The notes: generated by a model not told the origin, from the sequence alone. A DNA stretch of 64,000 nt from an uncultured Chloroflexia bacterium (GCA_963775855.1 CAVZKO010000008.1:3422-67421); one strand, 5' to 3'. Counted from the stretch's first letter, positions 19,069 through 41,526 are shown. Numbers and translations: made by a program.

Positions 19069-19380
19069 ATGCGTCGCTCCATCACCGCGCTCATGGCCGC
19101 CTTCGCTCTGGCCACTGTGATGGCGGTTCCCGCACTCGCGACCAAGCCGATCGGCCTCTGTCCGAACGGCCAGTTCGAGGCGATGACGTACGCGGAGTTC
19201 CTGGCCCTGTCGCGCTCCGTCGGAGTGCCTGAGGAGTTCCTCGGCGCCGACCATTTCGCGACGTTCCAGACATTCGACAAGAACCACGACGGACTCGTCT
19301 GCATCAAGGACCTTCCCGACACGCCGGGGCATCTCGGCGCCTGGGTCTTCAATGCCATTGACAACACGGCGCACCCGTGA
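19069..19380 (+). CDS. Small secreted protein with an EF-hand-like DxNxDG loop and two Cys
   Basis: Signal peptide ending PALA, FDKNHDGLVCIK, SD GGAGG upstream. Confidence 0.65.
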   Translation: MRRSITALMAAFALATVMAVPALATKPIGLCPNGQFEAMTYAEFLALSRSVGVPEEFLGADHFATFQTFDKNHDGLVCIKDLPDTPGHLGAWVFNAIDNTAHP

Positions 19381-19768
19381 CCGCAAAGCCAGCGCGCGCC
19401 TAGCGCGCAGATTGCCGCACGCCGGTTAGGCCGGGCCTGACGACGATCTCGCACGGCACTGGGCGACCAGTCGAGCTGGCGCGACCGTGGGCTTTTTCAA
19501 ATCGGCGCAATTGCATCCTCACGAAGTCGCCGATCACGGCCGGATAATGGTGGCCGGCCGACTTAGCCCAAGGGCAGCCTGCGCGGCCCGGAACCCCCCT
19601 CCCGGCCCGCGCTGGGCTTGCCCCCTATGTCGCAGTAGGCTCCGTTGGATTGGGCGGGTCGACCCCTCGCATTCGCGGAGTTGCGTCACCACCGCGATGG
19701 CGCTCGGCATCCTGAAGCGTCGGGAAGGCCTCGCGTGCTCTACTGCTGCTACAAATAGCCGGACACGC

Positions 19769-21322
19769 TCAGGGGGTCGCGGCTCCCGGGGCGGGGGCCG
19801 CGACGACGTCTCCATCGGCGTCGTCTGTGTCGTTGCCCTCTGTCGCTGTCGCGTCGTCATCATCCGTCGCCTCGAGAATCACCGTGGCGGCCGCGCCGCC
19901 CAGGGCCAGGATCAGCCAGAAGTAGCGGGCGTACGACAGGTGGAGGAAGAGCCCGCTGGCGAGGTAGCCGACGAGCGCCAGCATGAAGCCGGCAGCCATC
20001 GCCGCCAGGTCCGGCCGACGGCTCAACGCCTGCGTCCGAGCGCGGGCGAGCTGGACCAGCGTTGCGACGACCGCTCCGAGGAACATCGTCAGCCCGAGGA
20101 TCCCGGTCTCAGCAGCGAGGCCGAGATAGAGGTTGTGGGCCTCGCGGTCGGCAGCCCGGACGCTGACCCCGATCTCGTCGGCGTAGTCGCGGTAGTAGTT
20201 GGGAAACTGACCCGGGCCGACACCGAGCATCGGGTGGTCGGCGAACACTCGCAGGGCTGTCAGGTTCTCGGTCGCCCGGCTCAGCAGCGAGTTGTCGGTC
20301 TGGGCGCTTGCGGGCTCGTCGGACAACAGCGCCCCGAGGTCGGCGAGACTGGCCAGGCGTGCCCCGTAGGCGGGGACGGCGATGAGGACGACCGCGATCA
20401 ACGCGGCGGCGGCGACGAGGTGGCCGATCCGGATATAGCGGAGCGCGACCATCGCGACGAGGATGAGCCCCGCGGCCAGTGCCGCTCCCCGCGAGAACGT
20501 CAGCGCAGTCGCGATCGCCGCGAGGAGGGCGCAGCCCAGCGCGGCCACCCGCAGCCAGCGTTGCCGCTCGCCGGTGAACTGCATGACCGCGAGCGGGATG
20601 AGCATCAGCATGATCTGGGCATAGCGGTTCTTCTCGCCGATGGGGCCGGCGAGCCGGGCGATGCCCGTCTCCGTAACGCCGGTGGCGGCGGCCTCGGTCT
20701 GGGCGAACCCGAAATACGACGAGCTGTATGTCTCGGTGATCTCCTGATAGAAGGAGAGCGCCCCGAGGGCGGCCCCGACAAGGAGGAGCACCCAGATCAC
20801 CGCGCGCATGAGCTCGGGCGAGCGGATCGTGTTCGTGATGAGCAGATAGAGGCCGATCCCCTCGACAAAGAACGTGCCGAGCGACGCTGCCGCATCGCTC
20901 GGGTCGCGGGCGGTCAGCGTCGACAGAATCTGGACCACGAGGAGACCCGCGATCCACGGCATGGCCGGCGTCAGCACGATCTTGTGGCGGCGGATCAAGA
21001 TGTCGTAGGCGAGCGGCGCGGCCAGGATGATCGGTACCGAAGCGCCGATGGCGAGCGGCAGACTGTGGAACTGGACGAAGACGACCGGGGCATTGCTGTA
21101 GATCAGCCCGACCACGATCAGGACCGCCGCCTCCGGCCGAATCGCCACCACTGCCACGCCGAGCAGGGCGAGCACCCCCGCGATCGCGAGGACCGGCTCA
21201 AACGCTGCAACGATCCCGACCGCGAGGCTGATCGCGATCGTCAGGATGAGCGCGATGAGCAGCAGGATCGGTCGCGATCGCTCGCGAGGCGGAGCGCCGA
21301 TTTCCGGGGCTACCGCGCTCAT
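19769..21322 (-). CDS. Wzy polymerase / O-antigen ligase family membrane protein
   Basis: About 12 TM segments, RLAGPIGEKNRYA, LTFSRGA, GVGPGQF, AHNLYLGLAAETGILG. Confidence 0.85.
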   Translation of the reverse strand: MSAVAPEIGAPPRERSRPILLLIALILTIAISLAVGIVAAFEPVLAIAGVLALLGVAVVAIRPEAAVLIVVGLIYSNAPVVFVQFHSLPLAIGASVPIILAAPLAYDILIRRHKIVLTPAMPWIAGLLVVQILSTLTARDPSDAAASLGTFFVEGIGLYLLITNTIRSPELMRAVIWVLLLVGAALGALSFYQEITETYSSSYFGFAQTEAAATGVTETGIARLAGPIGEKNRYAQIMLMLIPLAVMQFTGERQRWLRVAALGCALLAAIATALTFSRGAALAAGLILVAMVALRYIRIGHLVAAAALIAVVLIAVPAYGARLASLADLGALLSDEPASAQTDNSLLSRATENLTALRVFADHPMLGVGPGQFPNYYRDYADEIGVSVRAADREAHNLYLGLAAETGILGLTMFLGAVVATLVQLARARTQALSRRPDLAAMAAGFMLALVGYLASGLFLHLSYARYFWLILALGGAAATVILEATDDDDATATEGNDTDDADGDVVAAPAPGAATP

Positions 21323-22491
21323 CGGTCGACCGACCCGGGGTCGCTGCCGCTTCGCGTCGGCTCCCAGCGCTCAATCCGCTTCCCTCGCAGGACGTTGATC
21401 GCTGCATGAAGCGAGGCGAGGTTGACCATCACGAAGAAGCTGCCCAGAGCGACCGGGCGTGACCGACCGATGCGGGACGCAGGCGCCAGGAGGCCGATCG
21501 CCGCCGCGGCGTAGCCGCCGAGCTGGAGGATCGCGAGCAAGCGATGGAGCGCGCTCTCCCGGGCGAGGCTGAGGCTCATCGCTCCGGCCAGCAGCACCGG
21601 GACAGCCATCAACCGCCGGAGGAGCTTGTGCCAGGCGAGCTGTATTGCATAGAAGCCGGTCCGCCGCGGGTCAAGGAGTGCCCGTCGCGCCGCCACGCCT
21701 CGGAATCCCCTGCTGATGATCCGGACCTTCCGGCCGTACTCCCTGCTCGTCGTCGTGGCCGGTGGCTCGAACGCGATCGCGTCAGGGGCGAACACGAGCC
21801 GTCTCCCCCGGTCGATGACCGCTGTCGAGGTGTAGAAGTCGTCGGTCACGCCGGCGATGATCGTCGGGACCAGCGATCGGCGCACGGCGTAGATCGCGCC
21901 GGTGGCTGAGACGGTACTGCCCGCGGCGCTCTCGGCGCGCTTCATCAGTCGATCGAAGTCCCAGTAGCTCCGCTCGCCCAGCCCTGCGGTCGAGGGATCG
22001 TCGGAAGTGTAGACCTGGTTGCCCGCGACGCCGCCGACGCTCGAGTCGGCCAGCGGCCGGACGATCGCCCGCAAGGCATCCCGGGCGAACGCGCTGTTGG
22101 CGTCGGTGAAGACGACCACGTCGCCGGTCGCCCGTTCCACGGCCGCATTCAACGCGTCGGCTTTACCTACCCGCCCGAGATCGAGGACGGTGACCCGCCC
22201 GGTTGAGGCGGCCCGGGCGATTGCGACGGTGTCATCCTCCGACCCGTCCGAGGCGACGATCACCTCGAGCAGGTCTGACGGGTAGTCGAGCTCGGCCAGG
22301 TTGGCAAGGCGATCTGCGATGCTGGCGGCCTCGTTTCGGGCGGCGATCACGACGGAGATGGACGGCTCGATCGCCGCCCTGCTGACCGGTCGCGGCCGGA
22401 GAGCCGCCCGAGCCAGGATCAGAAGCGGTGCGCCGGCAAAGGTGAACGAGATGAGGCCGGCGGAAGCCCAGAAGATGATGCGCCGGATCAC
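21319..22491 (-). CDS. GT2 glycosyltransferase (membrane-associated)
   Basis: SVVIAARNEA, SDGSEDDT, GKADALN, FTDANS, TGAIYAVRR, TDDF, C-terminal TM helices. Confidence 0.9.
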   Translation of the reverse strand: MIRRIIFWASAGLISFTFAGAPLLILARAALRPRPVSRAAIEPSISVVIAARNEAASIADRLANLAELDYPSDLLEVIVASDGSEDDTVAIARAASTGRVTVLDLGRVGKADALNAAVERATGDVVVFTDANSAFARDALRAIVRPLADSSVGGVAGNQVYTSDDPSTAGLGERSYWDFDRLMKRAESAAGSTVSATGAIYAVRRSLVPTIIAGVTDDFYTSTAVIDRGRRLVFAPDAIAFEPPATTTSREYGRKVRIISRGFRGVAARRALLDPRRTGFYAIQLAWHKLLRRLMAVPVLLAGAMSLSLARESALHRLLAILQLGGYAAAAIGLLAPASRIGRSRPVALGSFFVMVNLASLHAAINVLRGKRIERWEPTRSGSDPGSVDR

Positions 22492-22564: not shown

Positions 22565-24031
22565 TCAGCCGGCGGAGAGTCCGGCGTCGTCCGGCTCGGT
22601 CAGTGGGAAGGACGGGGCAGCGCGCGATGTGGTTGCCCGGGAGCGCTTCCGAGGCTCCCCTCGGCCGCCGGCCGTGGCGGACGCCCGAGTCGCGGCGGGT
22701 GCCCGGACGTCGACCGCAACCGTCGACGGGGCGTTGTCGGCGCGGGCAGCGCGACGCAGGCGGATCGGTCCGCGCTCAGTCAGGATCACGCCCGACGGCG
22801 ACGCTCCGATGAGACGAAGCGACTCGCCTGCGAACGCGACATCCTCGCGGCGGGACCGGTCGCGCCGGGCGACGAGGAGGACGGAGTCGGCGGCACGGGC
22901 CAGGGCGAGGGTGACGGGCGACGCCTGGATTGGCGCACCGACGATCACGACGAGGCCTTCGTCGCCGGCCAGCTTCGCGACGATCTCCCGCAGTTGTTCC
23001 GGGTCTGCCCCGTCCAGCCGGGCGCGGCCCGCGGGCAGGAGTGAGAGCGATCCTTCGCGGTCCGCCCGACGCACGGGAACGAGACCGTCTGCAAGAAGCT
23101 CGGACAGCCCGGCGCGGTCCTGCATGCCGTTGATCCGGGTGACGGTCCCGCCGGCCCCGGCTCCGTCGACCAGGACGACCTGGCGCCCGAACCGGCTCAG
23201 CGCGGCCGCCAGGTTGGCGCCGACGACAGCCGCCTCGCCCTCCCGGTCGACGTCGGTCACCAGGATGGATTTGAGGTTTGCCCGCTCCGGTCCGAGGGCG
23301 ACCTTCGCCGAGATGAGGCGGTACGGTGCCGCCGAGCGAGAGCCCGGCGCCGTGAGCACGACGAGATCCGCGGGTCCGGGCGGGTCGCCGCTCGGTGCGG
23401 GGACGGCTCCGAGGAATGGCGCCTGGGCGATCCTCGCCAGTTCCTGGCCAGTCCGGATGGTGTTGCCGAAGTATTCAAGCAGGAGGACGAGGATGATCGC
23501 GACGACGACGCCGGCCAGGGCCGCGAGCAGGACGAGGAGCGAGACCTGGGGCGCGACGGGAGTCGTCTCGGGCCGCGCGAACTCGATGATCTGGATGAGA
23601 CCCTCGGGCCGGCTGAGGCCGCGCGACGTCAGCTGCTCGAGCTCCGTCGCAAGCGTGTTGGCAAGCTTCGTCGCGACTTCCGGATCGCCCGCCTGGACAC
23701 GGATCGTCAGGATTCGAGTCACGTCGTTGGCCGTCGCGCGCGTCGCGGCCGCGAAGTCGTCGGGGCTCAGATCGAGCCCCAGCTCCTGAATCGTCGAGGT
23801 GAGAACCTCGCGCGTCGTCACGTACTGGGCGAAGGTCTGCACGAGCGCCTGGCTCGCTCGAAGCGTGTCGGTATCGGTGTTCAACGGCCCGACCAGGACC
23901 TTGACCTGCGACTCGTACGTGGGCGGGATCGTCTGGGCGACAAGGTAGCCGCTCAGGCCGGCGATCCAGGCAGCGACGACCAGCGTCCACCACCAGCGCT
24001 TGGCGACTGCTAGATACCCGGACAGCTCCAA
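22565..24031 (-). CDS. Wzz/Wzc-like polysaccharide co-polymerase with degenerate tyrosine-kinase domain
   Basis: RWWWTLVV TM1, PPTYESQVKVLV, TM2, then a kinase-like fold lacking canonical Walker motifs (TDVDREGEAAVVGANLA; VIVGAP). TTG start with SD GAGG. Confidence 0.8.
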   Translation of the reverse strand: MELSGYLAVAKRWWWTLVVAAWIAGLSGYLVAQTIPPTYESQVKVLVGPLNTDTDTLRASQALVQTFAQYVTTREVLTSTIQELGLDLSPDDFAAATRATANDVTRILTIRVQAGDPEVATKLANTLATELEQLTSRGLSRPEGLIQIIEFARPETTPVAPQVSLLVLLAALAGVVVAIILVLLLEYFGNTIRTGQELARIAQAPFLGAVPAPSGDPPGPADLVVLTAPGSRSAAPYRLISAKVALGPERANLKSILVTDVDREGEAAVVGANLAAALSRFGRQVVLVDGAGAGGTVTRINGMQDRAGLSELLADGLVPVRRADREGSLSLLPAGRARLDGADPEQLREIVAKLAGDEGLVVIVGAPIQASPVTLALARAADSVLLVARRDRSRREDVAFAGESLRLIGASPSGVILTERGPIRLRRAARADNAPSTVAVDVRAPAATRASATAGGRGEPRKRSRATTSRAAPSFPLTEPDDAGLSAG

Positions 24032-24169: not shown

Positions 24170-25147
24170 TCAACGGACCATCTGCACGCGGACCGCCGAC
24201 AGCGGCGTCCGAACCGAGACATTGATCCGGCGGAGCAGGAGCCAGCTCGCCGTGCGCAGGTCGTTGACGCCCCGGGCAGTCGTGAAGGCAATCCGGAGAC
24301 CGGCCGCACTGACGGCCTCGGCGACCGCGGGCGAGGCCGCCCCTGATGGATAGGCGAAGACCGGCAGGTTCGACCCCGTCTCGCGAGCGAGGTCATCCCG
24401 GGAACCCGCGATCTCGGCTTCGAGGGCTTCAGGCTCCAGGCGGGGCAACAGCGGGTGTGTCCGCGTATGGGGCGCCAGCGCTGCTCCTTCGCCGGCCAGG
24501 TCACGGAGCTTGGCCCAGCCGAGCACGAGGTTCCCGGGCTGCTCGCCGCCGAGCTCCGCGACGAGCCTGTCGACGGCCTCGAGCATTCGATCGTGGGCCA
24601 TCGCCTTGAGGGCATCCCGGATGGCGCGGTACGCATGCACCCGCTCCCGGGCCGATCCGAGGGGCAACTCGCCGCTCGGGGACACTACGGAGGGACGCGA
24701 CGACGTCGAAACGGCCCGATGGATACGGTCCCACCAGAAGCTGAGCTTTGGAGCGTCCGGGTAGGCGGTTGGTACGAAGAGGACGGCCGACAGCCCGCGG
24801 GCGCGGAGCGCCGGCCAGGCGTGCTCGGCGAAGTCGACGTAGGCGTCGTCGAACGTGAGCAGCAACGACCGAGGCGGGAGGGCCGGGCCGCCGTTCGAAC
24901 GCCGGACGAGGTCGTCGACGGAGATCACGGCGTGGCGCTTGGCGAGCGTATCGAGCAGCTCGCAGAAGCCGGCCGGGGTCGCGCTGAGCAGTCCAGGCGC
25001 GACGTCGACGCCGGGCGGCGCGACGCGATGGAATGTCAGGACCGCCAGTGAGTCCGGCCGGCGAGGGACGAGCCGCTCGAGGATGTCGACCGCCGCCGCC
25101 GCGGGCGGGCCGGCGGCGAGCGCCCGAAGAACGCCTGTGAGCGCCAT
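24170..25147 (-). CDS. Polysaccharide deacetylase (NodB/CE4)
   Basis: VLTFHRV, LLLTFDDAY, HTRTHP and FAYPSG motifs. Start placed at ATG 25147, 2 nt after the upstream stop. Confidence 0.88.
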   Translation of the reverse strand: MALTGVLRALAAGPPAAAAVDILERLVPRRPDSLAVLTFHRVAPPGVDVAPGLLSATPAGFCELLDTLAKRHAVISVDDLVRRSNGGPALPPRSLLLTFDDAYVDFAEHAWPALRARGLSAVLFVPTAYPDAPKLSFWWDRIHRAVSTSSRPSVVSPSGELPLGSARERVHAYRAIRDALKAMAHDRMLEAVDRLVAELGGEQPGNLVLGWAKLRDLAGEGAALAPHTRTHPLLPRLEPEALEAEIAGSRDDLARETGSNLPVFAYPSGAASPAVAEAVSAAGLRIAFTTARGVNDLRTASWLLLRRINVSVRTPLSAVRVQMVR

Positions 25148-25149
25148 CC

Positions 25150-26436
25150 TCAGCCGGCCGGTCGCGCGGCGTCTACCCTCGCCGGCTCGGCCGCCTCGGC
25201 CGGCCTCCGGCCCATCGCCGTCGAGAACAGGCGCCTGCCGGCTGCCCGGAACCCGGCGGCGGCGGTGTGCACGACGTCCGCGACGAATGGCAGCGGATCG
25301 TGCCGCGAGAAGACCGCCTCGACCTTTGGCCCCTTCACGGATGTCAGCCAATCGCCGACCGACAGCTGACCGCGACGGGCTCGGACGAGTGCGGCCTGGA
25401 GGTCGTGGCGCCAGTAGATCCACTTGACGCCGCGATATTCCTGCGTGACCGCGTCCGGCAAGGGCTCGCCGAGGGCGTCCCGGTACGCTGACATGAGGAG
25501 CTCCACGCCACCCTTCTCGGCAATCGCCGAGCGGCCGGTCGGCCGCCCGATGTTCGGCTCGATGATCATCAGCCGGCCGGTCCGTTCATCCTCCTTCGCC
25601 TCGACGTAACCGAGTCCACGGTAGGCAACGCTCCCGAAGAGGTCCCGGGCGATCGACTCGGCCTCCGGGCTTCGCACCTCCTCGCCGAGGCAGCTCGTGC
25701 CGGTATCGAGGGGCCATTGCCGGAGCTTGCGAGCGACGAAGGAGACGCGCTGCGCCGATGCCCGGTCGTAATAGGTGTTGACCGAGTAGAGCGAGCGTTC
25801 TGGGCCCGGGACCCACGACTGGGCGATCAGGACGTCCGCCCAGGAAGCGCAAGCGTCGTAGCGGGCGAGCAGCTCGTCGGGCGTATCGACCCGGATTGCC
25901 TTCGCCCTCGTCGCAGCGAGCCACGCCGGGCCCTTGAGGCCGGGCTTCAGGACCGCCGGGAACGTCAGGGACGCCGCTGCGAGTTCGGCGTCGACCCGCG
26001 AGCGGAGGACGGCCGTCGGTGGGATCGCCAGGCCCGTTGCTATCGCGTGCTCGGCGAAGCCGACCTTGTCCATGAGCCGCTCGACGTCGGCGTGGTCGGG
26101 CAGTACGAAGCGGAACGCACCGGCCAGGCGTTCGCGGCCGGCGGAGACCGCAAGCACCGCCGCGTCGGTGCAGGGGATGAGCACGCCCGGCTGGTCAAGT
26201 CGGGCGCCGAGCGCCACGAGGGCGTCGACGAGCGCTTCGCCTCGGAGCGTTGCCCGGACGATCGCGACCGGCAGTCGGGTCCGGGCGCAGAAGTGCTGGG
26301 CATCGGCGACGACGCCGACGACCGGGATGCCCCGAGCGTCGAAGATCCGGGTCGACTGCAGGCCGGTGATGCAGTCCAGCCCGACGATGACAGCGGGCGG
26401 GCGGTCGGTCGGGATCCGACCCGTCGTTCGGATCAA
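25150..26436 (-). CDS. ATP-grasp carboxylate-amine ligase (D-aspartate-ligase-like)
   Basis: LMDKVGF, FPAVLKP, IAQSWVPG, RKLRQWP..GTSC, YVEAKED...IIEPN. TTG start overlaps the pepM stop (TTGA). Confidence 0.82.
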   Translation of the reverse strand: MIRTTGRIPTDRPPAVIVGLDCITGLQSTRIFDARGIPVVGVVADAQHFCARTRLPVAIVRATLRGEALVDALVALGARLDQPGVLIPCTDAAVLAVSAGRERLAGAFRFVLPDHADVERLMDKVGFAEHAIATGLAIPPTAVLRSRVDAELAAASLTFPAVLKPGLKGPAWLAATRAKAIRVDTPDELLARYDACASWADVLIAQSWVPGPERSLYSVNTYYDRASAQRVSFVARKLRQWPLDTGTSCLGEEVRSPEAESIARDLFGSVAYRGLGYVEAKEDERTGRLMIIEPNIGRPTGRSAIAEKGGVELLMSAYRDALGEPLPDAVTQEYRGVKWIYWRHDLQAALVRARRGQLSVGDWLTSVKGPKVEAVFSRHDPLPFVADVVHTAAAGFRAAGRRLFSTAMGRRPAEAAEPARVDAARPAG

Positions 26437-27344
26437 GCCGGACCGGCCTCGTCCTCGAGGGCGATCGCTTCCTTCGTGCCGACGAGGTCGAAAATGTGAT
26501 TGACCGACACGATGTCGTCCTCGACGTCGGACGCTCGCCCGGCGACGGCCAGCTTGGCGAGGGTCGCCTCCATCGCCCCAACCGCGGCGCGCATCGGATG
26601 GTTGGCAAGGATGACGAGGTTGAAGCCCCGCTCGTAGAGCTGGGCCGACGAGAAGGTCGGGAAGAGCGTCGGAACGGCGACCAGAGGGAGCTTGCCGAAG
26701 CCCTTCCACGACGACAGGAATCCGTCGATCTCGGCCAGGGTCTTGTCGCGCGAGTGGATGAGGATGGCGTCGACGCCCGCGTCAGCGTAGGCATCGGCCC
26801 GTTCGCAGGCATCTTCCACGCCGTGACCGGCGATCAGGCTCTCGACCCGGGCGATGAGGATGAAGTCATCGGTCTGCTGCGCCCGCTTTGCCGCCCGCAA
26901 CCGGCGTGCCTGCTCTGCCGCCGGGATCAACTCGCGCTTCGTCTCCGCGCCGAGGAGGCTGTTCCGCTTGGGGAACAGGTTGTCCTCGATGCTGATCCCC
27001 GAGATCCCGGCCCGCTCGTACTCCACGAGCGTGCGCACGACGTTGCCGAGACCCCCGAAGCCGTTGTCGCAGTCGGCGATGACCGGGAGCTCAGTTGCGC
27101 CGTCGATCCGCTGGGCCGCCGCAAGCGTCTCCGACATCGTCGTGAGGTTCAGGTCGGGCAGGGCATGGGCCATCGTCGCGACGCCAAGCCCGCTGACCCA
27201 GACGGCGTCGAAGCCGTGCTCGCCGATCAGCTTTGCGCTGAGGGCATCGTGAGCCCCGACGGCGACGATCGATCGGGTGCCGTGGAGACCTTCCTTGAGT
27301 CGTCTCCGCTTTGCGTCTGCCCTATTCACGGTGGCTCGGGACAT
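26433..27344 (-). CDS. pepM: Phosphoenolpyruvate mutase (ICL/PEPM superfamily)
   Basis: AHDALSAK, WVSGLG, LPD, IADCDNGFG, EDNLFPKRNSL loop, IARVES, ILIHS. Lacks the K[KR]CGH motif of isocitrate/methylisocitrate lyases. Confidence 0.78.
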   Translation of the reverse strand: MSRATVNRADAKRRRLKEGLHGTRSIVAVGAHDALSAKLIGEHGFDAVWVSGLGVATMAHALPDLNLTTMSETLAAAQRIDGATELPVIADCDNGFGGLGNVVRTLVEYERAGISGISIEDNLFPKRNSLLGAETKRELIPAAEQARRLRAAKRAQQTDDFILIARVESLIAGHGVEDACERADAYADAGVDAILIHSRDKTLAEIDGFLSSWKGFGKLPLVAVPTLFPTFSSAQLYERGFNLVILANHPMRAAVGAMEATLAKLAVAGRASDVEDDIVSVNHIFDLVGTKEAIALEDEAGPA

Positions 27345-28293
27345 GGATCGGGGACATCTGTTCCTCCGCGGAGACTGGATCGAAACGATCGATGATTGCG
27401 ATGACTTCCTGGCCGATTTCCTCCTGCGCATCAATCGTCTGCGCGCCGATGTGCGGCGTCAGGACGACATTCGGCAGGTCGGCCAATGGCGATCGCTTGC
27501 CCTCGCCCTCTGCCACGTGGACATCGAGTGCGGCGCCACGGAGCCGGCCGCCGGGCTGCAGGGCGTCGAAGAGCGCCGCCTCGTCCACGACCCCGCCACG
27601 GGCGATATTCACGAGGAAGGCGCCGGGCTTGACCTTTGCCAGCTCAGCCGCGCCGATCATCCCGCGGGTGGTGTCACTGAGGGGGACATGCAGAGAAATG
27701 AAGTCGCCCTCGGCGAGGACGCGATCGAGGTCGGCGAGGTCGATCCCCTGGTCGGCGAAGGCACGCGAACGCTCCTCGCTCGGCCGCTCGACGACGCCGA
27801 TCGGGCGCATTCCCCAGGCCCCGCCAAGAGCCGCGACGCGGGAACCTATCGAGCCCAGCCCCACGATCCCCAGCCGCTTGCCGCGCAGGTTGTAGCCCAC
27901 CAGCTCCGACTTCGCCCAGTGGGCCGCCCGCAGATGGCGATCGGCCAGGACGATGCTGCGGGCCAGCGCGATCATCAAGCCGAACGTCAACTCGGCGACG
28001 GCCTGGGCGCCGGGTCCCGGGATGCGGATCAGCTCGATTCCGCGCTCCCGGACCGTCGCGAGGTCGAGGTTGTCGAGCCCGGAGCCGGCTCGGACCAGGA
28101 GTCGCAGGTCGGGTGCGGCGAGCACGCCCGGCCCGATGCTGACGCCGCTCCGGAAGACGATCGCCTGGCGGTCGGCCGCGGCCTCGGCGAGGACGTCCTC
28201 GGACGCGCCGATTGCCGTCCGGACATCGTGCCTGGACTGGAGTGCCGCGAGCGCGGCGGGGGCGATCTGGCTCGCGACGAGGATTCGCATCAC
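27322..28293 (-). CDS. D-isomer-specific 2-hydroxyacid dehydrogenase (SerA-like, no ACT domain); candidate phosphonopyruvate reductase
   Basis: RAGSGLDNLD, AVAEL, LGIVGLGSIG, ISLHVPL, LVNIARGGVVDE, AALDV, LTPHIGA. Confidence 0.88.
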   Translation of the reverse strand: MMRILVASQIAPAALAALQSRHDVRTAIGASEDVLAEAAADRQAIVFRSGVSIGPGVLAAPDLRLLVRAGSGLDNLDLATVRERGIELIRIPGPGAQAVAELTFGLMIALARSIVLADRHLRAAHWAKSELVGYNLRGKRLGIVGLGSIGSRVAALGGAWGMRPIGVVERPSEERSRAFADQGIDLADLDRVLAEGDFISLHVPLSDTTRGMIGAAELAKVKPGAFLVNIARGGVVDEAALFDALQPGGRLRGAALDVHVAEGEGKRSPLADLPNVVLTPHIGAQTIDAQEEIGQEVIAIIDRFDPVSAEEQMSPIHVPSHRE

Positions 28294-29162
28294 GAACCTG
28301 CCACCGACGGGTTGTCCACGATCGTCGGCTGCCCGATCGAGGCGGCCAGTTCGTCGACCAGGTCCGGCGCCAGGACCGATGCCTGCGTCCCCTCGGCCGG
28401 CTCAGCGACCCCCTCCGCCTGGCCGCTCGTGTCGCCGACGATGGTGCCGCCCGCTACGAAGGCGACAATTCGTCCGACGATGTCGTCGACGACTTCGCCA
28501 ACGGGCCGGTTTGCGTCGACCACCTGGAATGCCGGGAGGACACGCTCGAGATCGAGGTACTCGAGCCGGCGCTTCGCCACTCGCTCGAGCGATTCTCCCG
28601 GCTTGCGCGCGGTCAACACCTCTGGCGGGGCGTCGAGGAACAGCGTCAGCTCCGGCTTCGGATACCAGTGGCGAAGCACGTAGCCGTGAATTCGCGCGTC
28701 GAGCGGCCGCCGACGGTTGGTTGGCGCGATCGTGGTTGCGTAGTAGTCGGCGAAGAAGTGACGGTCGAAGACGACGACCGCGGGGCGTCGCTGGATGCGC
28801 CGCGCGAGGGCGGCCCGATAGGCCTCCTCGGCGAGCCAGTTCGTGATCCGGATCAAACGCCGGGCGGCCGCGAGCGGGCCACCGTGGCGCGAGTCTGGTT
28901 CCGAATGCCCGACGGTCATGTCAGGGTTGCCGCCGCGACGGCGCTTGATGGCCAGGGCCAGGCGGGTCGTTGGCAGCATGACCGGGCTCGCCGCGAGGTT
29001 GACGCCCATGTACAGGTAGCTGGCGTCGAAGGGCAGTCGCCCGATCAGTTCGTGGGCGACGGTCGACTTGCCGGCGCCGTCGATTCCGATGAGCGCGACG
29101 CTTCGACCGATCTGCACGGGTGGGGCTGGTGATGCCCGACCGGCCGCGTCGTAATTCCTCAT
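28290..29162 (-). CDS. Thymidylate-kinase-like P-loop kinase (start uncertain)
   Basis: ALIGIDGAGKST, VVFDRHF, PKPELTLFLDAPPEVL.ARK. Confidence 0.7.
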   Translation of the reverse strand: MRNYDAAGRASPAPPVQIGRSVALIGIDGAGKSTVAHELIGRLPFDASYLYMGVNLAASPVMLPTTRLALAIKRRRGGNPDMTVGHSEPDSRHGGPLAAARRLIRITNWLAEEAYRAALARRIQRRPAVVVFDRHFFADYYATTIAPTNRRRPLDARIHGYVLRHWYPKPELTLFLDAPPEVLTARKPGESLERVAKRRLEYLDLERVLPAFQVVDANRPVGEVVDDIVGRIVAFVAGGTIVGDTSGQAEGVAEPAEGTQASVLAPDLVDELAASIGQPTIVDNPSVAGS

Positions 29163-29320
29163 CTGCGTACTAGGACCCCCACCCGAATGTACCGGCGGCG
29201 CCGCCGGATCAACGAACCGGGAGTGTAGGTCAAGTTGGGCCCCGCTGCGCGGAGTAGTTGGTGCCCGACGGGTCGTTGGGGCCATGTCGCGGCACGGAAT
29301 GCGTTGCTAGTCAGCAACAT

Positions 29321-30469
29321 TCACGAAGGTGCGTCAGCCGGAAGACCGATTGCCCCGGCGATCAGCTCGTGAAGCGCCGGGATATCCGGCGGGTATGGGT
29401 GCCGGACGGAGACGCACGGCTTCCCGCTGAATGCGTCGACCAGGCATTTCTCAACGATGGCGGGCAGCGACTCGATGAACGGGTTGCGGCGATCGGGGAA
29501 GGCGTACCGGAACGTGAGATAGAGCGCCTGGAGGTCGAGGAGCTCGTGGACCACGGTTGCGGCCGTACGGCGAGCGACGATCGTCCCGTCGATCGGCTCG
29601 GCGACGGCCTCCGGATCGCCCGAACTCTCGACCAGGACAATCGCGTCGAGCGGCGTGAGGCCCACCGAGACGCGCCCGTCGAACACGCGTTTCGGCGGGA
29701 TCTGGAGCGATCGCTGGTTGTCGGCGATCGCCCCGAGCCGCCGGGCGAGGTCGCCTGGGGCCGACGAGCGGATCAGTGGCAAACGTGCGGCGCCGGCGAG
29801 GAGTCGCGCGGCCGACGCAGCCGCCCCCAGCCGTAGGCGTCGACCCGTCCCGATCCGGTCGCGCAGTCGAGGCACCATCGCAAGCTGCCAGTCCCACAGC
29901 CGCATGGGCTCGGGAAGGCCGGCCATCGCGGACCCATCGCCGGTCACGAAGACCCACTCGTCGCCGACATAGGTCGCGCCGCGGTCGGCGAACGCCAGCA
30001 GCACCTCGGACTTGCCGCCCTTCGCCCACCCCGTCACCAGTGTTCCGCGGCCGCCCGCGATGAACGCGCTGGCATGGACCGGCACAATTCCTTTCGAGAG
30101 GAGCGTCAGGTTGATGATCGGAAGGAGGTAGGGGACCGCTGAGAGGCCGCGCTCGGCGACGATCTCGAGCGGTGTCGTGCCGATCTGGGCGACCGGGATC
30201 GCGACTTTGACGGTCGTCTTGCGGCGCCCGCGCAGGACGACAAACTCATCATCGCCGTAGGCCGCTTCTCGACCGAGCGGTCGGAGGACGCCGCGAACCT
30301 CGAGGCGGTCGACGAAACGTATCGTGATGTCGCCGGTGGCCGCGTCGACCTGGGGCAGGGGTCCAAGCTGGCGAACGATGGCCGCGACCTCGGGTCGGCC
30401 GGCATCCACGAGCACGATCGTCAGCAGCCCGTGGAGATCGAGGACGGTCGTGGCCCGATCAGACGACAC
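29321..30469 (-). CDS. HPr-kinase-like P-loop protein (start uncertain, ORF open to 30499)
   Basis: VPVHASAF, GWAKGGKS P-loop, YVGDEWV acidic motif. Confidence 0.65.
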   Translation of the reverse strand: MSSDRATTVLDLHGLLTIVLVDAGRPEVAAIVRQLGPLPQVDAATGDITIRFVDRLEVRGVLRPLGREAAYGDDEFVVLRGRRKTTVKVAIPVAQIGTTPLEIVAERGLSAVPYLLPIINLTLLSKGIVPVHASAFIAGGRGTLVTGWAKGGKSEVLLAFADRGATYVGDEWVFVTGDGSAMAGLPEPMRLWDWQLAMVPRLRDRIGTGRRLRLGAAASAARLLAGAARLPLIRSSAPGDLARRLGAIADNQRSLQIPPKRVFDGRVSVGLTPLDAIVLVESSGDPEAVAEPIDGTIVARRTAATVVHELLDLQALYLTFRYAFPDRRNPFIESLPAIVEKCLVDAFSGKPCVSVRHPYPPDIPALHELIAGAIGLPADAPS

Positions 30470-32036
30470 GGCGTTCGACCTCGCTTTCCGGCTTGCCAAT
30501 CAGCTCGCGAATTACCGGGATCTTCAGCAACTCCGGAAAGTAGCGGCCGATCTGGAGTGACCTGCGGGTGATGCGAAGGAGCCCGACGGAGACGGCCGCG
30601 ACGAGCGGGACTCCGAGAAGCAGCGGCATGTTGGTGACCAGCTGGACAACCGTCAGCGCCGCGAGCGCGACCGCGACCGTCGCGTACGTCAGGACGTGCC
30701 GAAGCGAGGGCAAGCCGATCGCCGATAGAGAAAGACCCGCCTGGTAGAGGAGGTTCTGGATGATCAGGGTCGATGCCGTCGCGATGCCCGCCCCGAGCGC
30801 GCCGTACGAGCCGATGAGCAGGACGCTGGCCGTGAGGCTGATGACCGCCGACAGGACGTCGACGGCGACGATGAACCGGATCGATCCCTGGACCCGGAGC
30901 GTCAGCGCATTGAAGCCGAGCGCGGCATTGACGTAGTGGCCGATGGAGAGGATGGCGAGGACCGCGCCCGCGTCCGCATACGCCGCGCCGAACAGGAGCA
31001 CGGTCAGGGGCCCGGCGAGCGCGACCGTCATGGCGAGAGCCGGGAACGTCGCCACGGCGATCCAGGCCGAGGTCTGCCAGTACATGTTGCGCAGCCGGTT
31101 GTACTCGCCCCGGGCGAACAGTCGTGCCGCAACCGGGACGAACAGAAAGCCGAAGCTCTGGTAGATGACGAGGTTCTGGCGCGCGAGGGGTAGCACGGCG
31201 GCGTAGGCGGCGACTTCGTTCGAGGTGGCCAGGCGCTGGAGGATGATGACAACCGCCGACGTCCGTAGCAGGAAGACGATATCGGACGACAGCAACGGCA
31301 GGCTGAAACCGAACATCGCCCGGACCGGAAGGCTGAAGTCGCGGCGCAGGATCCGGCCCGCGATCCCCTTCTGTTCCAGCAGCCGGGCGAGGAGGATCGC
31401 GAACGCGGCCACCCCGACAATTCCCGCAACGACGTAGCCGATCGCCAGGACCTCCGCGGGCTGGTCGGCGAGGATGACGACGGCGACGACGATCAGCTGC
31501 AGCCCCGGCGCGAGGATGTTGCGTCGTAGGACGATCGAGCGGGCGCTCCCGAAGATCGCAAAGCAGGCGGTCGCGAGGCTGTCGAAGGCGCGAACCGGAG
31601 CGAGAAGGAAGAGAATCAGCATGAGCTGCCGAGCGAGCTCGTTCTCGACGATGTCGCTGCCGAACCTGGACTGGAAGCCGATGAGGGCGAGCAGCATCGC
31701 GGCACAGACCCCGCCGACCACGCCGAACGCGAGGACCAGGGAGCCCGCCAGCCGACGCTCGTCCCCCTGCTCCTCGTAGAGAGGCACGAACCGCGAGATC
31801 GTCTTGTCGAGGCCAAGCAGGGCCAGGGTTGCCGCCAGCGAGGCCACGGACAGGCCGAAGGCGAATGCTCCGAACTCCGTCCGCGACAGCGCCCTGACGA
31901 TGAGGATTTGCGTCGACAGATCGAGTATCAGCCCGATGAACTTGCCGAAAACGAGAATCGTCGAGCCGCGGAAGTGGCCGGCCTCTTCGTGAAGCGTCCC
32001 CTCCTCGCCCGTGGCTACCCGATCTTCCGGCTCCAT
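30459..32036 (-). CDS. Wzx-type oligosaccharide flippase
   Basis: About 14 TM segments, RALSRTEFGAF, GLDKTISRFVP, EVAAYAAV, YGALGAGIAT. ATG 32036. Confidence 0.88.
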   Translation of the reverse strand: MEPEDRVATGEEGTLHEEAGHFRGSTILVFGKFIGLILDLSTQILIVRALSRTEFGAFAFGLSVASLAATLALLGLDKTISRFVPLYEEQGDERRLAGSLVLAFGVVGGVCAAMLLALIGFQSRFGSDIVENELARQLMLILFLLAPVRAFDSLATACFAIFGSARSIVLRRNILAPGLQLIVVAVVILADQPAEVLAIGYVVAGIVGVAAFAILLARLLEQKGIAGRILRRDFSLPVRAMFGFSLPLLSSDIVFLLRTSAVVIILQRLATSNEVAAYAAVLPLARQNLVIYQSFGFLFVPVAARLFARGEYNRLRNMYWQTSAWIAVATFPALAMTVALAGPLTVLLFGAAYADAGAVLAILSIGHYVNAALGFNALTLRVQGSIRFIVAVDVLSAVISLTASVLLIGSYGALGAGIATASTLIIQNLLYQAGLSLSAIGLPSLRHVLTYATVAVALAALTVVQLVTNMPLLLGVPLVAAVSVGLLRITRRSLQIGRYFPELLKIPVIRELIGKPESEVERRVV

Positions 32037-32048
32037 CAACGCCGACGC

Positions 32049-33155
32049 ATGAGCGGGCGCGTGGCTGGTAGTCTCGGAACGGTGGATGCCCTCGAGTCGA
32101 TCCTCGCCGAACTCCGGCCCCTGGTTCGCGAGTGGTACCCGGATGCGGACGCGACGGCGGAGCTCGACGTCCTCGACGTCAATTCGCGCGTCGTCGTGCA
32201 CGTGATTCGAGTCCGGGTGGCCCGGACGAATGGGCCCCCGGCGACGCTCATGGTCAAGGCCGGCGCGGCCGACATCGCCCCGGACACATCCGATCGGCCA
32301 CGCCTCATGCCAATGACCGACCAGCCCGAACGTCCGCAACTGGAGTTCGAGGCGCTGCGGACCGTAGAGGCCAGAGTGGGGGAGGTCGGCGACCCCCAAT
32401 TCGTGGCCGTCCGCCCGCTCGGCGTCCTGCCCGTGGCGAACGCGCTCGTCATGGAGGCGTTCGATGGCGAGCCGCTCCATCAATTCCTCTTGCGGCGTCC
32501 GTTTCGATCGGGAGCCGCGCTCGCGCCCTCGATCCTGGCGCGGGCGACCGGACGGTGGCTCCGCATCCTGCACGACACGCCGTCATCGACCCAGGCGGTG
32601 CGGCAGGGGACCAGGGAGGAGGTCGTCGACGCGTTTGCCGCATTCGGCTCGTACCTGGCCGCCGAGAAGGTTTCGCCCCACCTCGACGAGGTCGTCGAGG
32701 CGGGAATCGCGTCTGCACGTCGGCTCCCCGATCCGCTGCCGACCGTCATCACCCACGGAGACTTCGCGCCGCGAAACATCCTCGTGGACCGATCCGGCCG
32801 GATGGCCGTCATCGACCTGCTCCTCCGATGGCAGGCGCCGGCCTTCGAGGATCTCGCGGGGTTCCTCGTGGCGCTCCAGACGAGCCGGGCAAACGCGGCG
32901 ACGCGCGGACTACTATTCGGGCGCACCATCGAGAGGCTGGAGCCTGCCTTTCTTACGGGGTATTACGGTTCGGAGCCGGTGCCGCGGAACGCGATCCGGG
33001 TCTACGAGCTCCTGCTCGTCCTCGACAAATGGTCCGCCCGGGCGATCCGGAATCGGACGCTCGGGGGCGTCCGGCGCATGCGCGAACGGCTGATCGACAG
33101 CCACTTCGACGCCCGGTCACGGTTACTTGCTCGCCGCCTCCGCGAGCGTGTCTGA
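32049..33155 (+). CDS. Aminoglycoside-phosphotransferase/choline-kinase-like protein
   Basis: LMVKA, ALVMEA, THGDFAPRNIL (catalytic loop), AVID (Mg-binding). Confidence 0.8.
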   Translation: MSGRVAGSLGTVDALESILAELRPLVREWYPDADATAELDVLDVNSRVVVHVIRVRVARTNGPPATLMVKAGAADIAPDTSDRPRLMPMTDQPERPQLEFEALRTVEARVGEVGDPQFVAVRPLGVLPVANALVMEAFDGEPLHQFLLRRPFRSGAALAPSILARATGRWLRILHDTPSSTQAVRQGTREEVVDAFAAFGSYLAAEKVSPHLDEVVEAGIASARRLPDPLPTVITHGDFAPRNILVDRSGRMAVIDLLLRWQAPAFEDLAGFLVALQTSRANAATRGLLFGRTIERLEPAFLTGYYGSEPVPRNAIRVYELLLVLDKWSARAIRNRTLGGVRRMRERLIDSHFDARSRLLARRLRERV

Positions 33156-34011: not shown

Positions 34012-36000
34012 ATGGCAACCGAGCCCGACGAAGGACAACCGGCTGCCGCAACCAGCAACGCTTCAGGAGGCGTCGCGGGCTCGCCGCTTGGCGATCCCGC
34101 TGAACCGCCGACCACGGATGCTGTTGAGCTGCCGCCTGCCGATCTCCGACGACGAGCTCTCATTCTGACTCCCCTCGTCGCGATCATCGTCGGGCTTGCC
34201 GTCGGCCTTGCCAATCTCCCCACCGGGCGGGCCGTCACGCCCGGCGACAGTTCGCAGTCACCATCGGCTGGGGTGGTGGCCGAACCGGGCTACCTCGTCA
34301 GCCTCGACGAGCTGCGTCGGCGGGGCGAGATGGCGGCCCGCGGGGAGGAGCCCCACGCATCCGCCGTGACGAATCTCATGGAATGGGCCGACAACGCCGT
34401 GACCGAAGCTGCCCGTCCCACGCAGCCGCTACGGATCGTGGGAACCGACAATGAATTCGTCGACGACGCCCGTCGCGCATACGGTCTCGGCCTGGCCTTT
34501 GGACTGAGCGGCGACGAGCGATATGCCCAGGCTGCCCGTCGAACGATCCGCAACTGGATGGACGTGGTAACGACGACGACCGACACGTGCCCGGACGGTG
34601 GTGGTTGCCACACGTCGCTGATCATCGGTCGCGCCGGCGCGGGTTTTGCCTTCGGCGCTGACCTCATCGCCAGCTCCGAATCCTGGACGGCAGACGATCG
34701 GGCCGACCTCCAGGCCTGGATGCGGAACGTCCTCCTGCCCGCGGTCTCCCACCGCCCGAACAACTGGGGCGACGCGGGGACGTTTCTGCGCGTGGTGGCG
34801 GCCGACTACGCGGGGGACCAGGGCGAGTTCGATCTGGCAATCGAGAAGTGGCGATCCCTCATCGATCTGATCGAGCCGGACGGCCGGATTCCCGAGGAGG
34901 TCCGGCGCGGCGCGGCGGGAATCCTGTACACGCAAGAAGCGCTCCAGTACAAGGTGGCCGTCGCGCGAATCGCCGAGCGCCGCGGAATCGACGTCTGGGA
35001 CTACGTCGGTGCGCGGGGCGGGTCGCTGCGCAAGGCAGTCGACCGCCTGGCGTATTACTGGCAGCGACCCGCCGACTGGCCGGACTACAAGGGACCCATG
35101 GTTCCCAGCCCCGGACCGCTGTGGGAGATCGTGTACGCCCACTGGCAGGACAAACGCTGGCTCGACATCCTGCTGGACGGCCGTCCGTACGGAGATCAGG
35201 GGCACTCGGCCATCCGCTGGACCACGCTGACCAACGGCATCCCCGTCGAGCCGCTGGTGGCTGGGGGGCCGAGCGGAAGCCCCGGAGCCACGGCGCGCCC
35301 TAGTGCCTCGGTGTCACCAACGCCGCCGCTGGCTCCGGCCCCACCAATCAGCGGATTGGCAGTTGCGCTCGGGTCTTCCCTGGGCAACCCCCTGCCCATG
35401 GTGATCAGGTGGGTCGCGCCGGAAGTCGCGGGCGCCAACGTCGAGCTGGAACGGTCTGTCGGCGGGGCCTGGTCGGCCATGAAGATTGGTTCAGACGGTC
35501 AATCGGCGCGCGATTCGCTGCGGCTCGGCCGCGTCACGGCGTACCGGGTTCGGGCCGTCGTCGCGGGCAGCGCGGGGCCATGGGCCGCGCTCGATAGCGT
35601 CTCGGTCGAGCGCATCGAGGCGACGAGCCGGACCGCCGATTTGAGCGGGACATGGACCCGGGTTGCGTTTTCCGGCTACTCGGGCGGATCCGCCCTCACG
35701 ACGGACGCCAGCGGGGCGAAGATGGTCTGGCGTGGCACGACCCAGTCCATCGCCATCATCGGGCCCACCGGTCCCACCCGCGGCCGGATGGTCGTCACCG
35801 TCGACGGCGTCCGTGCCGACGATATCGACCTTCGGTCGAGCCGCTACCGGGCTCGGAACGTACTCTTCACGACGTCCTGGAGCGATGCGGCAGTCCACGA
35901 GCTTGTGATCGAAGCCCGATCATCGAGCGGCCGCCGGACGGTCGCGGTGGACGACATCGTTACGTTGACATCGACCCTCATCGCTCCACAAGGTTCATGA
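34012..36000 (+). CDS. Membrane-anchored alginate-lyase-fold protein with FN3-like and C-terminal beta-sandwich domains (paralog C)
   Basis: Single N-terminal TM, GLAFGLSGDERYAQAA, HRPNNWGD, PEEVRRG...YTQEALQ, GPTGPTRG module shared with paralog A. Confidence 0.68.
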   Translation: MATEPDEGQPAAATSNASGGVAGSPLGDPAEPPTTDAVELPPADLRRRALILTPLVAIIVGLAVGLANLPTGRAVTPGDSSQSPSAGVVAEPGYLVSLDELRRRGEMAARGEEPHASAVTNLMEWADNAVTEAARPTQPLRIVGTDNEFVDDARRAYGLGLAFGLSGDERYAQAARRTIRNWMDVVTTTTDTCPDGGGCHTSLIIGRAGAGFAFGADLIASSESWTADDRADLQAWMRNVLLPAVSHRPNNWGDAGTFLRVVAADYAGDQGEFDLAIEKWRSLIDLIEPDGRIPEEVRRGAAGILYTQEALQYKVAVARIAERRGIDVWDYVGARGGSLRKAVDRLAYYWQRPADWPDYKGPMVPSPGPLWEIVYAHWQDKRWLDILLDGRPYGDQGHSAIRWTTLTNGIPVEPLVAGGPSGSPGATARPSASVSPTPPLAPAPPISGLAVALGSSLGNPLPMVIRWVAPEVAGANVELERSVGGAWSAMKIGSDGQSARDSLRLGRVTAYRVRAVVAGSAGPWAALDSVSVERIEATSRTADLSGTWTRVAFSGYSGGSALTTDASGAKMVWRGTTQSIAIIGPTGPTRGRMVVTVDGVRADDIDLRSSRYRARNVLFTTSWSDAAVHELVIEARSSSGRRTVAVDDIVTLTSTLIAPQGS

Positions 36001-38306: not shown

Positions 38307-38317
38307 CCTTCCGCGAC

Positions 38318-41175: not shown

Positions 41176-41338
41176 TCCGGATACGACTCCTTTGGGCGCA
41201 CCCGTCCGGGCGCGCCGGCCAATGGTAGGCGGCACCGGCGGCACGCGCTGCAGGGAGAGATGCCCCAAAACGGTGCCTACCGTCAACGAGAATGACGCCG
41301 TGGACCCGCTTAAGCACGCGTTTGACAGCAAATCGTTA

Positions 41339-41367: not shown

Positions 41368-41526
41368 GGTACTACGAGCGCGCAGGACTAAAGGTCTACG
41401 GTCTCATTCGGTCATCTTCTTTTTGGGGACCTGCGAACTCGTTCCCGTCGGCCGGGCAAGCCGCGGACCTTGGATACCCGCGTCCCGTGGGGCAAATCGG
41501 GAAGTTGGGGCAGGGGGAGATCAGAC

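Follow-up and report, generated by a model that had tools for sequence, protein, structure and literature searches.

A Ppd-independent PEP-mutase-like gene cassette in Wzx/Wzy polysaccharide loci of Chloroflexota and Actinomycetota, a candidate route to C3-phosphonate-decorated polysaccharides

Known phosphonoglycans carry C2 phosphonates, namely 2-aminoethylphosphonate (AEP), 2-hydroxyethylphosphonate (HEP) or methylphosphonate, made through phosphonopyruvate decarboxylase (Ppd). Here we describe a 64,000-nt stretch of DNA from an uncultured soil Chloroflexia bacterium (the window; positions 3422-67421 of contig CAVZKO010000008.1, GCA_963775855.1) in which a cassette encoding a phosphoenolpyruvate (PEP) mutase-like enzyme (PepM-like), a SerA-like 2-hydroxyacid dehydrogenase and an ATP-grasp ligase lies within a Wzx/Wzy polysaccharide locus and is not accompanied by Ppd. 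The metagenome-assembled genome (MAG) amounts to 3.43 Mb, is 69% complete and has a G+C content of about 69%, with close homologues of the cassette proteins being labelled Candidatus Limnocylindrales. Its nearest known counterpart is the early part of the valinophos pathway of Streptomyces durhamensis, which is reported to begin with the PepM VlpA and the 2-hydroxyacid dehydrogenase VlpB forming phosphonolactate (PMC8942020, PMC12871164, PMC12723261). It is accepted that a 2-hydroxyacid dehydrogenase can drive the mutase reaction by reducing phosphonopyruvate to phosphonolactate (PMC8942020, PMC12871164).

As reported for the valinophos cluster, PepM is paired in the window with a reductase of the 2-Hacid_dh family, Ppd is lacking, an ATP-grasp gene (VlpF in valinophos) is in the same cluster and phosphonolactate is the predicted first stable phosphonate. 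The window differs in that no PGK-, GAPDH- or reductase-like gene (VlpC/D/E) was detected among its genes scanned with Pfam and NCBIfam, such that no route to dihydroxypropylphosphonate is encoded, in the variant EDN motif of its PepM, in the presence of thymidylate-kinase (TMK)-like and HprK/PEP carboxykinase (PEPCK)-fold kinases, and in the location of the cassette in Wzx/Wzy polysaccharide loci rather than in a small-molecule biosynthetic gene cluster. The phosphonoglycan systems that use Ppd, such as Bacteroides fragilis polysaccharide B with AEP, the HEP-type systems of Glycomyces and Stackebrandtia and those proceeding through PntC and CMP-AEP, likewise have PepM within cell-surface glycan loci and share with the window the presumed phosphonate decoration of a polysaccharide. 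Unlike these, the window genes scanned include no Ppd, AEP transaminase, NTP_transf_3 or LicD-type transferase, and activation would apparently occur via a carboxylate (ATP-grasp) and/or the kinases instead of a CMP conjugate. In full-text literature searches neither the cassette nor PepMs departing from the EDK motif were found, in keeping with an earlier note, made from the window sequence, that knew of no description of such a polymer.

The genes of the cassette are translationally coupled. The note had delineated a minus-strand series of dehydrogenase, pepM, ATP-grasp and carbohydrate esterase family 4 (CE4) deacetylase genes, all of which were confirmed as open reading frames (ORFs) with domain evidence (Table 1), and a base-by-base check of the junctions bore out each of its proposed contacts. 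The dehydrogenase stop TAG (27322-27324) falls within the pepM start region, giving an overlap of 23 nt from the ATG at 27344 or of 8 nt from the GTG at 27329, the latter being the start used by most pepM homologues (MNRAD...). The pepM and ATP-grasp genes overlap by TTGA, while the TGA of the ATP-grasp gene is followed by GG and then by the ATG of the CE4 gene, 2 nt away. A further overlap, GTGA, joins the TMK-like kinase gene to the dehydrogenase start.

A scan of one genome per species yielded 80 loci, mostly from Chloroflexota and Actinomycetota with a few from KSB1, in which homologues were counted by tblastn with the window proteins, as single-linkage clustering of the ORFs was blurred by high-GC shadow ORFs. 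PepM-like was present in all 80 loci, the dehydrogenase in 75 (nearly all directly upstream of PepM), the ATP-grasp enzyme in 73 (in most cases some 930 nt past the pepM start), the TMK-like kinase in 61 and the HprK-like kinase in 54, where it is usually collinear. Typical offsets from the pepM start were -2900 for the HprK-like gene, -1660 for the TMK-like gene, -970 for the dehydrogenase gene and +930 for the ATP-grasp gene, and the same collinear order in 80 species-level loci from several phyla goes far beyond chance. Four of the loci are from isolates (Geodermatophilus telluris DSM 45421, Geodermatophilaceae URHB0062, Blastococcus carthaginiensis BMG 814 and Nocardioides caldifontis YIM 730233). 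A minimal version in a Gaiellaceae MAG (L088) has the order priming transferase, dehydrogenase, PepM, divergent ATP-grasp and Wzz/bacterial tyrosine kinase, and therefore the invariant core comprises the dehydrogenase, PepM and ATP-grasp genes. The kinases are frequent accessories and the deacetylase is an extra found mainly in loci of Chloroflexota type. Thus, of the four-gene module put forward in the note, the synteny search upheld the first three genes; the deacetylase, adjacent in 28/80 loci, did not belong to the unit, since nearly all actinobacterial loci lack CE4 but keep the cassette, and two better-conserved upstream kinases had been left out of its frame.

The location within a Wzx/Wzy polysaccharide locus was substantiated by the identification of flanking Wzx, Wzy and Wzz genes, and across the loci the cassette is nearly always surrounded by Wzx, Wzy, Wzz or priming-transferase genes. 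In Chloroflexota the order is Wzx, HprK-like, TMK-like, dehydrogenase, PepM, ATP-grasp, CE4, Wzz, (epimerase, GT4), GT2 and Wzy, with alginate-lyase-fold genes bordering the whole block. In Nocardioides caldifontis the cassette is located between GT4/Bac_transf genes and a Wzz-like gene with sulfotransferases nearby, and Wzz-like, Wzx, Wzy, Bac_transf, GT4 and sulfotransferase genes recur in the actinobacterial flanks. Homologues of at least one of a limited set of polysaccharide genes were detected in 45 of the 54 loci of at least 16 kb. Matches to the cassette were found in three of 401 evenly sampled Chloroflexota genomes, one being the window genome itself and one only 43% identical, and there were five PepM-like matches among 401 sampled genomes of the class of Geodermatophilus telluris. 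The cassette is absent from genomes of the same genus and the same family and is as such accessory, with identities of 60-70% across phyla implying horizontal spread. One or more sulfotransferases occur in 14 loci with actinobacterial versions of the island, as in L058 (16859-18061, plus strand; 19156-20061, minus strand), suggesting that the actinobacterial polymer may also be sulfated.

The note had reported no Ppd, AEP transaminase or cytidylyltransferase in the window, and profile scans of the window were likewise negative, those for nucleotidyltransferases being for NTP_transf_3 only. In the whole 3.43 Mb MAG the best Ppd match reached 41 bits against the TIGR03297 cut-off of 312.5. Given that the MAG is only 69% complete, the absence of Ppd was re-tested in 16 further cassette genomes, and across all 17, which include four isolate genomes of 4.8-5.1 Mb, no TIGR03297 match exceeded 62 bits; the genome-wide ppd search that the note had proposed as a check hence returned nothing reaching the cut-off in 17 genomes. 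No second, canonical PepM above its cut-off was detected in the MAG or in the 16 other cassette genomes, no match to the AEP transaminase reached its cut-off, and NTP_transf_3 was not found on the window contig, the search not extending to the PF00483 and PF01467 nucleotidyltransferases. Together with the coupling of the genes, the absence of Ppd supports the claim of a Ppd-independent PepM module with a SerA-like dehydrogenase and a coupled ATP-grasp ligase.

The central enzyme is probably a real PEP mutase. Its top-scoring NCBIfam model is TIGR02320, with phosphonopyruvate hydrolase (PPH) at 203.4 bits and PrpB at 164.4 bits, and it aligns with the PepM structures 5UNC (1e-58) and 1M1B (2.5e-51) in phmmer searches with an identity of about 40-45%. 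It shares with the canonical PEP mutases of Mytilus edulis (1M1B) and Streptomyces (5UNC) the fold family together with D58, D85, D87, E114, K120, N122, S123, R159 and H190, which we take to be the catalytic and Mg-binding residues of Mytilus PepM, and W44, S46, G47 and L48, presumably its phosphoryl-binding residues; the sole change among the Mytilus PepM residues compared is K116 to Asn. The gating loop reads KRNS, retaining the K-x-N-S of the canonical enzymes, as opposed to KDTS in PPH (2DUA) and KRCGH in lyases. When PPH was tested for, the score lay well under the TIGR02321 cut-off of 374.4 bits and no K-D-T-S loop was present, and a PPH or lyase function was judged unlikely because the gating-loop residues are wrong for it.

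The dehydrogenase is best matched in NCBIfam by the phosphoglycerate dehydrogenase (PGDH) model TIGR01327, at 251.6 bits against a cut-off of 454, and its translation contains GLGSIG, ARGG and TPHIG, consistent with the fold, the Rossmann GxGxxG motif and the Arg/Glu/His catalytic set of a VlpB-type reductase of the 2-Hacid_dh family. The same pairing occurs with canonical EDK PepMs in actinomycetes, with PepM and dehydrogenase sharing one stop-free frame of 620 aa in an apparent fusion (L098, 475-2334) or with the dehydrogenase upstream of PepM (L099); these two dehydrogenases are about 31% identical to that of the window. The extended flanks of two further loci with a canonical EDK PepM and a dehydrogenase (L101, L102) were uninformative.

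The gene following pepM encodes an ATP-grasp enzyme. No Pfam match was obtained for its product at E <= 0.001, and a profile of 37 sequences matched D-Ala-D-Ala ligase (6e-8) and also cyanophycin synthetase and RimK in the PDB. An AlphaFold2 (AF2) model with a predicted local distance difference test score (pLDDT) of 87.4 retrieved PurK, biotin carboxylase, Ddl and the L-amino-acid ligase RizA in Foldseek at E values of 1e-16 to 1e-13, and homologues bear the Joint Genome Institute names 'ATP-grasp carboligase' or 'D-aspartate ligase' with COG3919-type annotation. In the CE4 protein the motifs TFDD and HTRTH (H-T-x-x-H) are intact in translation, and no obvious signal peptide was seen by eye, such that it could act in the cytoplasm beside the ATP-dependent ligase.

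Of the two upstream kinases, the TMK-like protein is matched through a profile of 28 orthologues to thymidylate kinases in the PDB (2.7e-11), with a P-loop GxDGAGKS and a DR(H) motif invariant among the orthologues; as the conserved core sets in only around residue 62 of the ORF, translation probably begins near 29100-29140. One Ppm family was described as flanked by a thymidylate kinase (Li and Horsman). The HprK-like profile matched HPr kinase in the PDB (1.9e-6) over the P-loop region. Its NCBIfam matches were weak, namely HprK-related kinase B (4.6e-4) and the FomB model NF000361 (E 0.003; 16.7 bits against a cut-off of 400), the latter confined to the P-loop segment. Its AF2 model (pLDDT 91.7) gave ATP-dependent PEP carboxykinases as the top whole-chain Foldseek matches (E 2e-5, TMq 0.46), followed by HprK/P. 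Among the ligands of PEPCK are oxaloacetate, PEP and sulfopyruvate, to which phosphonopyruvate is analogous. In this respect the PEPCK-like fold of the model is suggestive, though it is no evidence of the substrate. The arrangement recalls the fosfomycin kinases FomA and FomB, which phosphorylate a phosphonate sequentially, in having two kinases beside a PepM gene and in the weak match of the HprK-like protein to the FomB family, and a kinase of the nucleotide-monophosphate type could act on a phosphonate in the way it acts on a phosphate. The similarity is however marginal, FomA having an amino-acid-kinase fold rather than a TMK-like one and both FomA and FomB being resistance enzymes.

The pathway that we favour, by a narrow balance of probability and from sequence comparisons, leads from PEP through phosphonopyruvate to phosphonolactate, which would then be ligated by the ATP-grasp enzyme to a glycan-related acceptor to give a C3-phosphonate-decorated polysaccharide. 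A mobile cassette would have been inserted into a Wzx/Wzy-dependent surface-polysaccharide cluster. Its PepM-like enzyme, with Asn in place of K116 of the canonical motif EDKX5NS, would convert PEP to phosphonopyruvate, which the SerA-like dehydrogenase, by analogy with VlpB, would reduce with NAD(P)H to D-3-phosphonolactate, so pulling the unfavourable mutase equilibrium in place of Ppd. The ATP-grasp enzyme would convert a carboxylate, most simply that of phosphonolactate, to an acyl phosphate, and the acyl group would pass to an acceptor offering an amine or hydroxyl, which may be a sugar precursor, a lipid-linked repeat unit or a small linker. In Chloroflexota the apparently cytoplasmic CE4 protein might conceivably free an amino sugar as acceptor. 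The weakest step concerns the TMK-like and HprK/PEPCK-fold kinases, whose target in the C3 acid would probably be either its phosphonate or its 2-hydroxyl. It may tentatively be proposed, as a rather speculative extension, that the EDN enzymes are genuine mutases discarded by every motif-filtered inventory and that the kinases make a phosphono-diphosphate from phosphonolactate or its ATP-grasp conjugate as a nucleotide-independent activation for glycan transfer, yielding a hitherto unrecognised class of surface polysaccharides that bear C3 phosphonates and are often sulfated; such a stepwise double-kinase activation would parallel the logic of FomA and FomB, here used for biosynthesis.

Several observations weigh against this pathway. 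The PepM-like protein scores 260.8 bits on TIGR02320, below the cut-off of 319.55, and its motif is EDNLFPKRNS rather than EDKX5NS, the Asn at the K116 position resembling the Gln found there in lyases (EDQ in 3EOO). In a quick maximum-likelihood search with IQ-TREE, for which a methylisocitrate lyase fragment served as the root, the window clade (SH-aLRT 100) fell outside the canonical PepM and PPH clade and among other non-EDK lineages. The CE4 gene adjoins the cassette in just over a third of the loci, all but two of the 28 being labelled Chloroflexota-type, and no obvious gene generating amino sugars (deacetylase or sugar aminotransferase) was seen in the actinobacterial flanks scanned. 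The minimal version in the Gaiellaceae MAG is moreover free of kinases, indicating that the kinases are not essential to the core chemistry. The low score and the motif are properties of the whole group, 16 PepM-like orthologues from the other cassette genomes reaching 250-273 bits on TIGR02320 and EDN[LV]FPKRNS being present in 121/121 close homologues. The canonical EDK clade (SH-aLRT 99) takes in 1M1B, 5UNC and the hydrolase PPH 2DUA, and a sister position of the window clade to it was not rejected in an approximately unbiased (AU) test (p-AU 0.54); as the test allows that position, a firm claim that the window clade is basal was dropped. The identification as PepM made in the note therefore stands with regard to the catalytic residues and the best-matching family, and is qualified by the EDN motif, the sub-cut-off score and the separate clade that set the protein apart from canonical PEP mutases, on account of which PepM activity is something that we infer, though with good support.

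The best circumstantial support for a mutase function of the window enzyme comes from the other non-EDK lineages, which were drawn from a search of 1.84 billion representative proteins. Among the best 150 representatives at 50% identity (P0245-P0394), 90 had EDK..NS and about 55 had other motifs, comprising EDN..NS (21), EDN..CS (15) and EDS, EDQ and EDH variants. To our knowledge Ppd has no role without phosphonopyruvate, and the non-EDK proteins are argued to be real PEP mutases because a bona fide or split Ppd adjoins them or because a 2-hydroxyacid dehydrogenase adjoins or is fused to them. P0258 (EDN..CS) adjoins a Ppd scoring 379.8 bits on TIGR03297 (cut-off 312.5); P0251 (EDN..CS, fused to NTP_transf_3) is followed by a split Ppd of 148 and 178 bits; P0283 (EDN..NS, fused to NTP_transf_3) is followed by a Ppd-like gene and an iron-dependent alcohol dehydrogenase in a glycan cluster; and P0259 has a split thiamine-diphosphate-dependent decarboxylase and an aminotransferase as neighbours. 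For the dehydrogenase, P0288 (623 aa, EDQ..NS) is a fusion of PEP_mutase and 2-Hacid_dh domains, its 3.9 kb contig offering no informative neighbours, while P0314 (EDN..NS) is followed by a PGDH-like dehydrogenase (L093, Logan DRR438480 contig, 307-5828).

Among the same relatives, the EDN..CS group has Cys at the position of the catalytic Asn122 yet adjoins a bona fide Ppd. The contig of P0314 also carries, after the PepM-dehydrogenase pair, a dodecin gene and a gene with a faint F420_ligase match, and in P0311 (801 aa) a PepM-like domain is fused to an AMP-binding adenylating enzyme. A fusion of GAPDH-like and PepM sequences (P0252) was considered as a VlpB-type context and set aside, its contig being a cluster of FR-900098 type (HMGL-like, aconitase, Iso_dh).

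Were the PepM-like protein instead to perform another reaction of the isocitrate lyase/PEPM superfamily, as a hydrolase, lyase or decarboxylase of a substrate resembling oxaloacetate, phosphonopyruvate or a hydroxy acid, the polysaccharide would receive an ordinary non-phosphonate acid, for example of the glycerate, lactate or malate type, to which the kinases might add phosphate. The sub-cut-off score, the EDN motif and the position outside the canonical clade would fit such an enzyme, as would the functional diversity of the superfamily, in which the location of PPH inside the canonical PepM clade indicates that function can switch with few changes; a PGDH-like dehydrogenase could moreover use 3-phosphohydroxypyruvate or hydroxypyruvate, and two kinases are present. 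We nevertheless consider it unlikely, given that all PepM catalytic residues are conserved, that the loop is the PepM-type KRNS without the Cys-Gly-His of lyases or the Thr of PPH, that bona fide Ppd lies next to other non-EDK relatives, and that an unfavourable mutase equilibrium would be expected to go with such tight translational coupling to a reductase. That the mutase is driven by a Ppd encoded elsewhere in the genome, to yield ordinary AEP or HEP, is highly improbable and was rejected; it would draw on the incompleteness of the MAG and is countered by the negative profile search of 17 cassette genomes, by the lack of an AEP transaminase match reaching its cut-off and by the translational coupling of the dehydrogenase to PepM.

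If the favoured route to phosphonolactate is taken, the nature of the conjugate has still to be weighed. A diffusible small molecule, for instance a phosphonolactyl-amino-acid conjugate like valinophos or the phosphonoalamides, with the position in polysaccharide loci being incidental or export-related, would be in line with the combination of PepM and ATP-grasp ligases typical of phosphonopeptide clusters (PMC8942020, PMC12723261) and with a compact unit that moves between phyla and is absent from near relatives, as accessory natural-product clusters are. It appears improbable because in both phyla the cassette is inserted on the strand of its neighbours, with the flippase or priming transferase on one side and Wzz on the other, stop and start codons frequently overlapping. 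The frequency of polysaccharide genes in the long loci also speaks against it, as does the fact that no dedicated exporter, resistance gene, nonribosomal peptide synthetase or extra amino-acid ligase is conserved with the cassette. The product proposed in the note, an N-phosphonolactyl exopolysaccharide in which the ATP-grasp enzyme links phosphonolactate through an amide to amino sugars unmasked by CE4, is a special case of the polysaccharide decoration favoured here. The 2-nt spacing of the ATP-grasp stop and the CE4 start, the intact CE4 motifs without a recognisable signal peptide and the adjacency of CE4 kept in mostly Chloroflexota-type loci are consistent with it, whereas 52/80 loci, including nearly all actinobacterial ones, have no adjoining CE4, the actinobacterial flanks scanned contain Wzx, Wzy, Wzz, sulfotransferases and glycosyltransferases with no deacetylase or sugar aminotransferase, and ATP-grasp enzymes of phosphonate pathways can form esters as well (VlpF, as cited in PMC12723261). 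The N-phosphonolactyl product is accordingly doubtful, and the amide between phosphonolactate and an amino sugar was not borne out as such, being one of several possible ligations that nothing in the evidence singles out.

Surveys of pepM filter on EDKX5NS (PMC8942020, PMC6697681, PMC12723261). If the non-EDK enzymes are active mutases, inventories filtered in this way miss a part of the biological C-P pool. This part would belong to Chloroflexota and Actinomycetota of soils and would be of relevance to phosphorus cycling. A phosphonolactate-derived decoration would, if true, be a new polymer chemistry, and the conserved kinases hint at an undescribed activation strategy. Carriers of the cassette include cultured, non-pathogenic strains of Geodermatophilus, Blastococcus and Nocardioides.

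Table 1. Genes of the cassette and of the surrounding polysaccharide island, with positions counted from the first nucleotide of the window
Feature	Position	Strand	Evidence or remark
Wzy polymerase	19769-21322	-	PF04932 5.5e-22
GT2 glycosyltransferase	21319-22491	-	PF00535 1.1e-25
Wzz/polysaccharide co-polymerase (PCP) chain-length determinant, tyrosine-kinase-like C-terminal region	22565-24031	-	PF02706, PF13807; TIGR01006 9e-24, TIGR01007 1e-9
CE4 polysaccharide deacetylase	24170-25147	-	PF01522 Polysacc_deac_1 6.4e-17
ATP-grasp carboxylate ligase	25150-26436	-	Profile and AF2/Foldseek; no Pfam match
Non-canonical PEP-mutase-like enzyme	26433-27344	-	PF13714 3e-54; gating-loop motif EDNLFPKRNS at 26958-26987
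D-2-hydroxyacid dehydrogenase, short PGDH (SerA)-like, without ACT domain; putative phosphonopyruvate reductase	27322-28293	-	PF02826 2.8e-53, PF00389 5.8e-18
Thymidylate-kinase-like P-loop kinase	28290-29285	-	Pfam Thymidylate_kin 7.9e-7
HprK/PEPCK-fold P-loop kinase-like protein, 392 aa	29321-30499	-	Accessory cassette member
Wzx flippase	30459-32573	-	PF01943 5.2e-12, PF13440; ORF over-extended at 5' end
APH-like phosphotransferase	31908-33155	+	NF033068 APH(3') 3.4e-5; HGDFAPRN motif; divergent from wzx
Epimerase/dehydratase	38147-39265	+	Sugar-nucleotide gene of the same island
UDP-glucose/GDP-mannose dehydrogenase	41470-42942	+	Sugar-nucleotide gene of the same island
Bac_transf priming transferase	43629-44252	+	Same island

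Homologues of the APH-like phosphotransferase were detected in 23/80 loci, its counterpart in L008 being assigned to PF01636. Three alginate-lyase-fold (PF05426) paralogues are situated around the island of the window (3957-5936, minus strand; 14078-15781 and 34012-36000, plus strand), and the syntenic islands L006 and L008 are likewise bordered by homologous lyase-fold genes. A cyclic di-GMP (c-di-GMP)-I riboswitch aptamer (RF01051; 13923-13998, plus strand; 54.5 bits, E 6.8e-8) is located some 80 nt 5' of the second of these paralogues, a position suggesting that a matrix-remodelling enzyme beside the exopolysaccharide island is controlled by c-di-GMP. Two PKD-repeat proteins of about 1000 aa (15936-18920 and 44252-47320, both plus strand), the second with a CBM96 module, and a CBM_4_9 protein (39292-41331, minus strand) probably belong to the same island as secreted proteins that bind or process glycans. 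Upstream of the island, a protein of the camelysin/TasA-type Peptidase_M73 family is encoded at 10786-11415 on the plus strand (4.7e-13).

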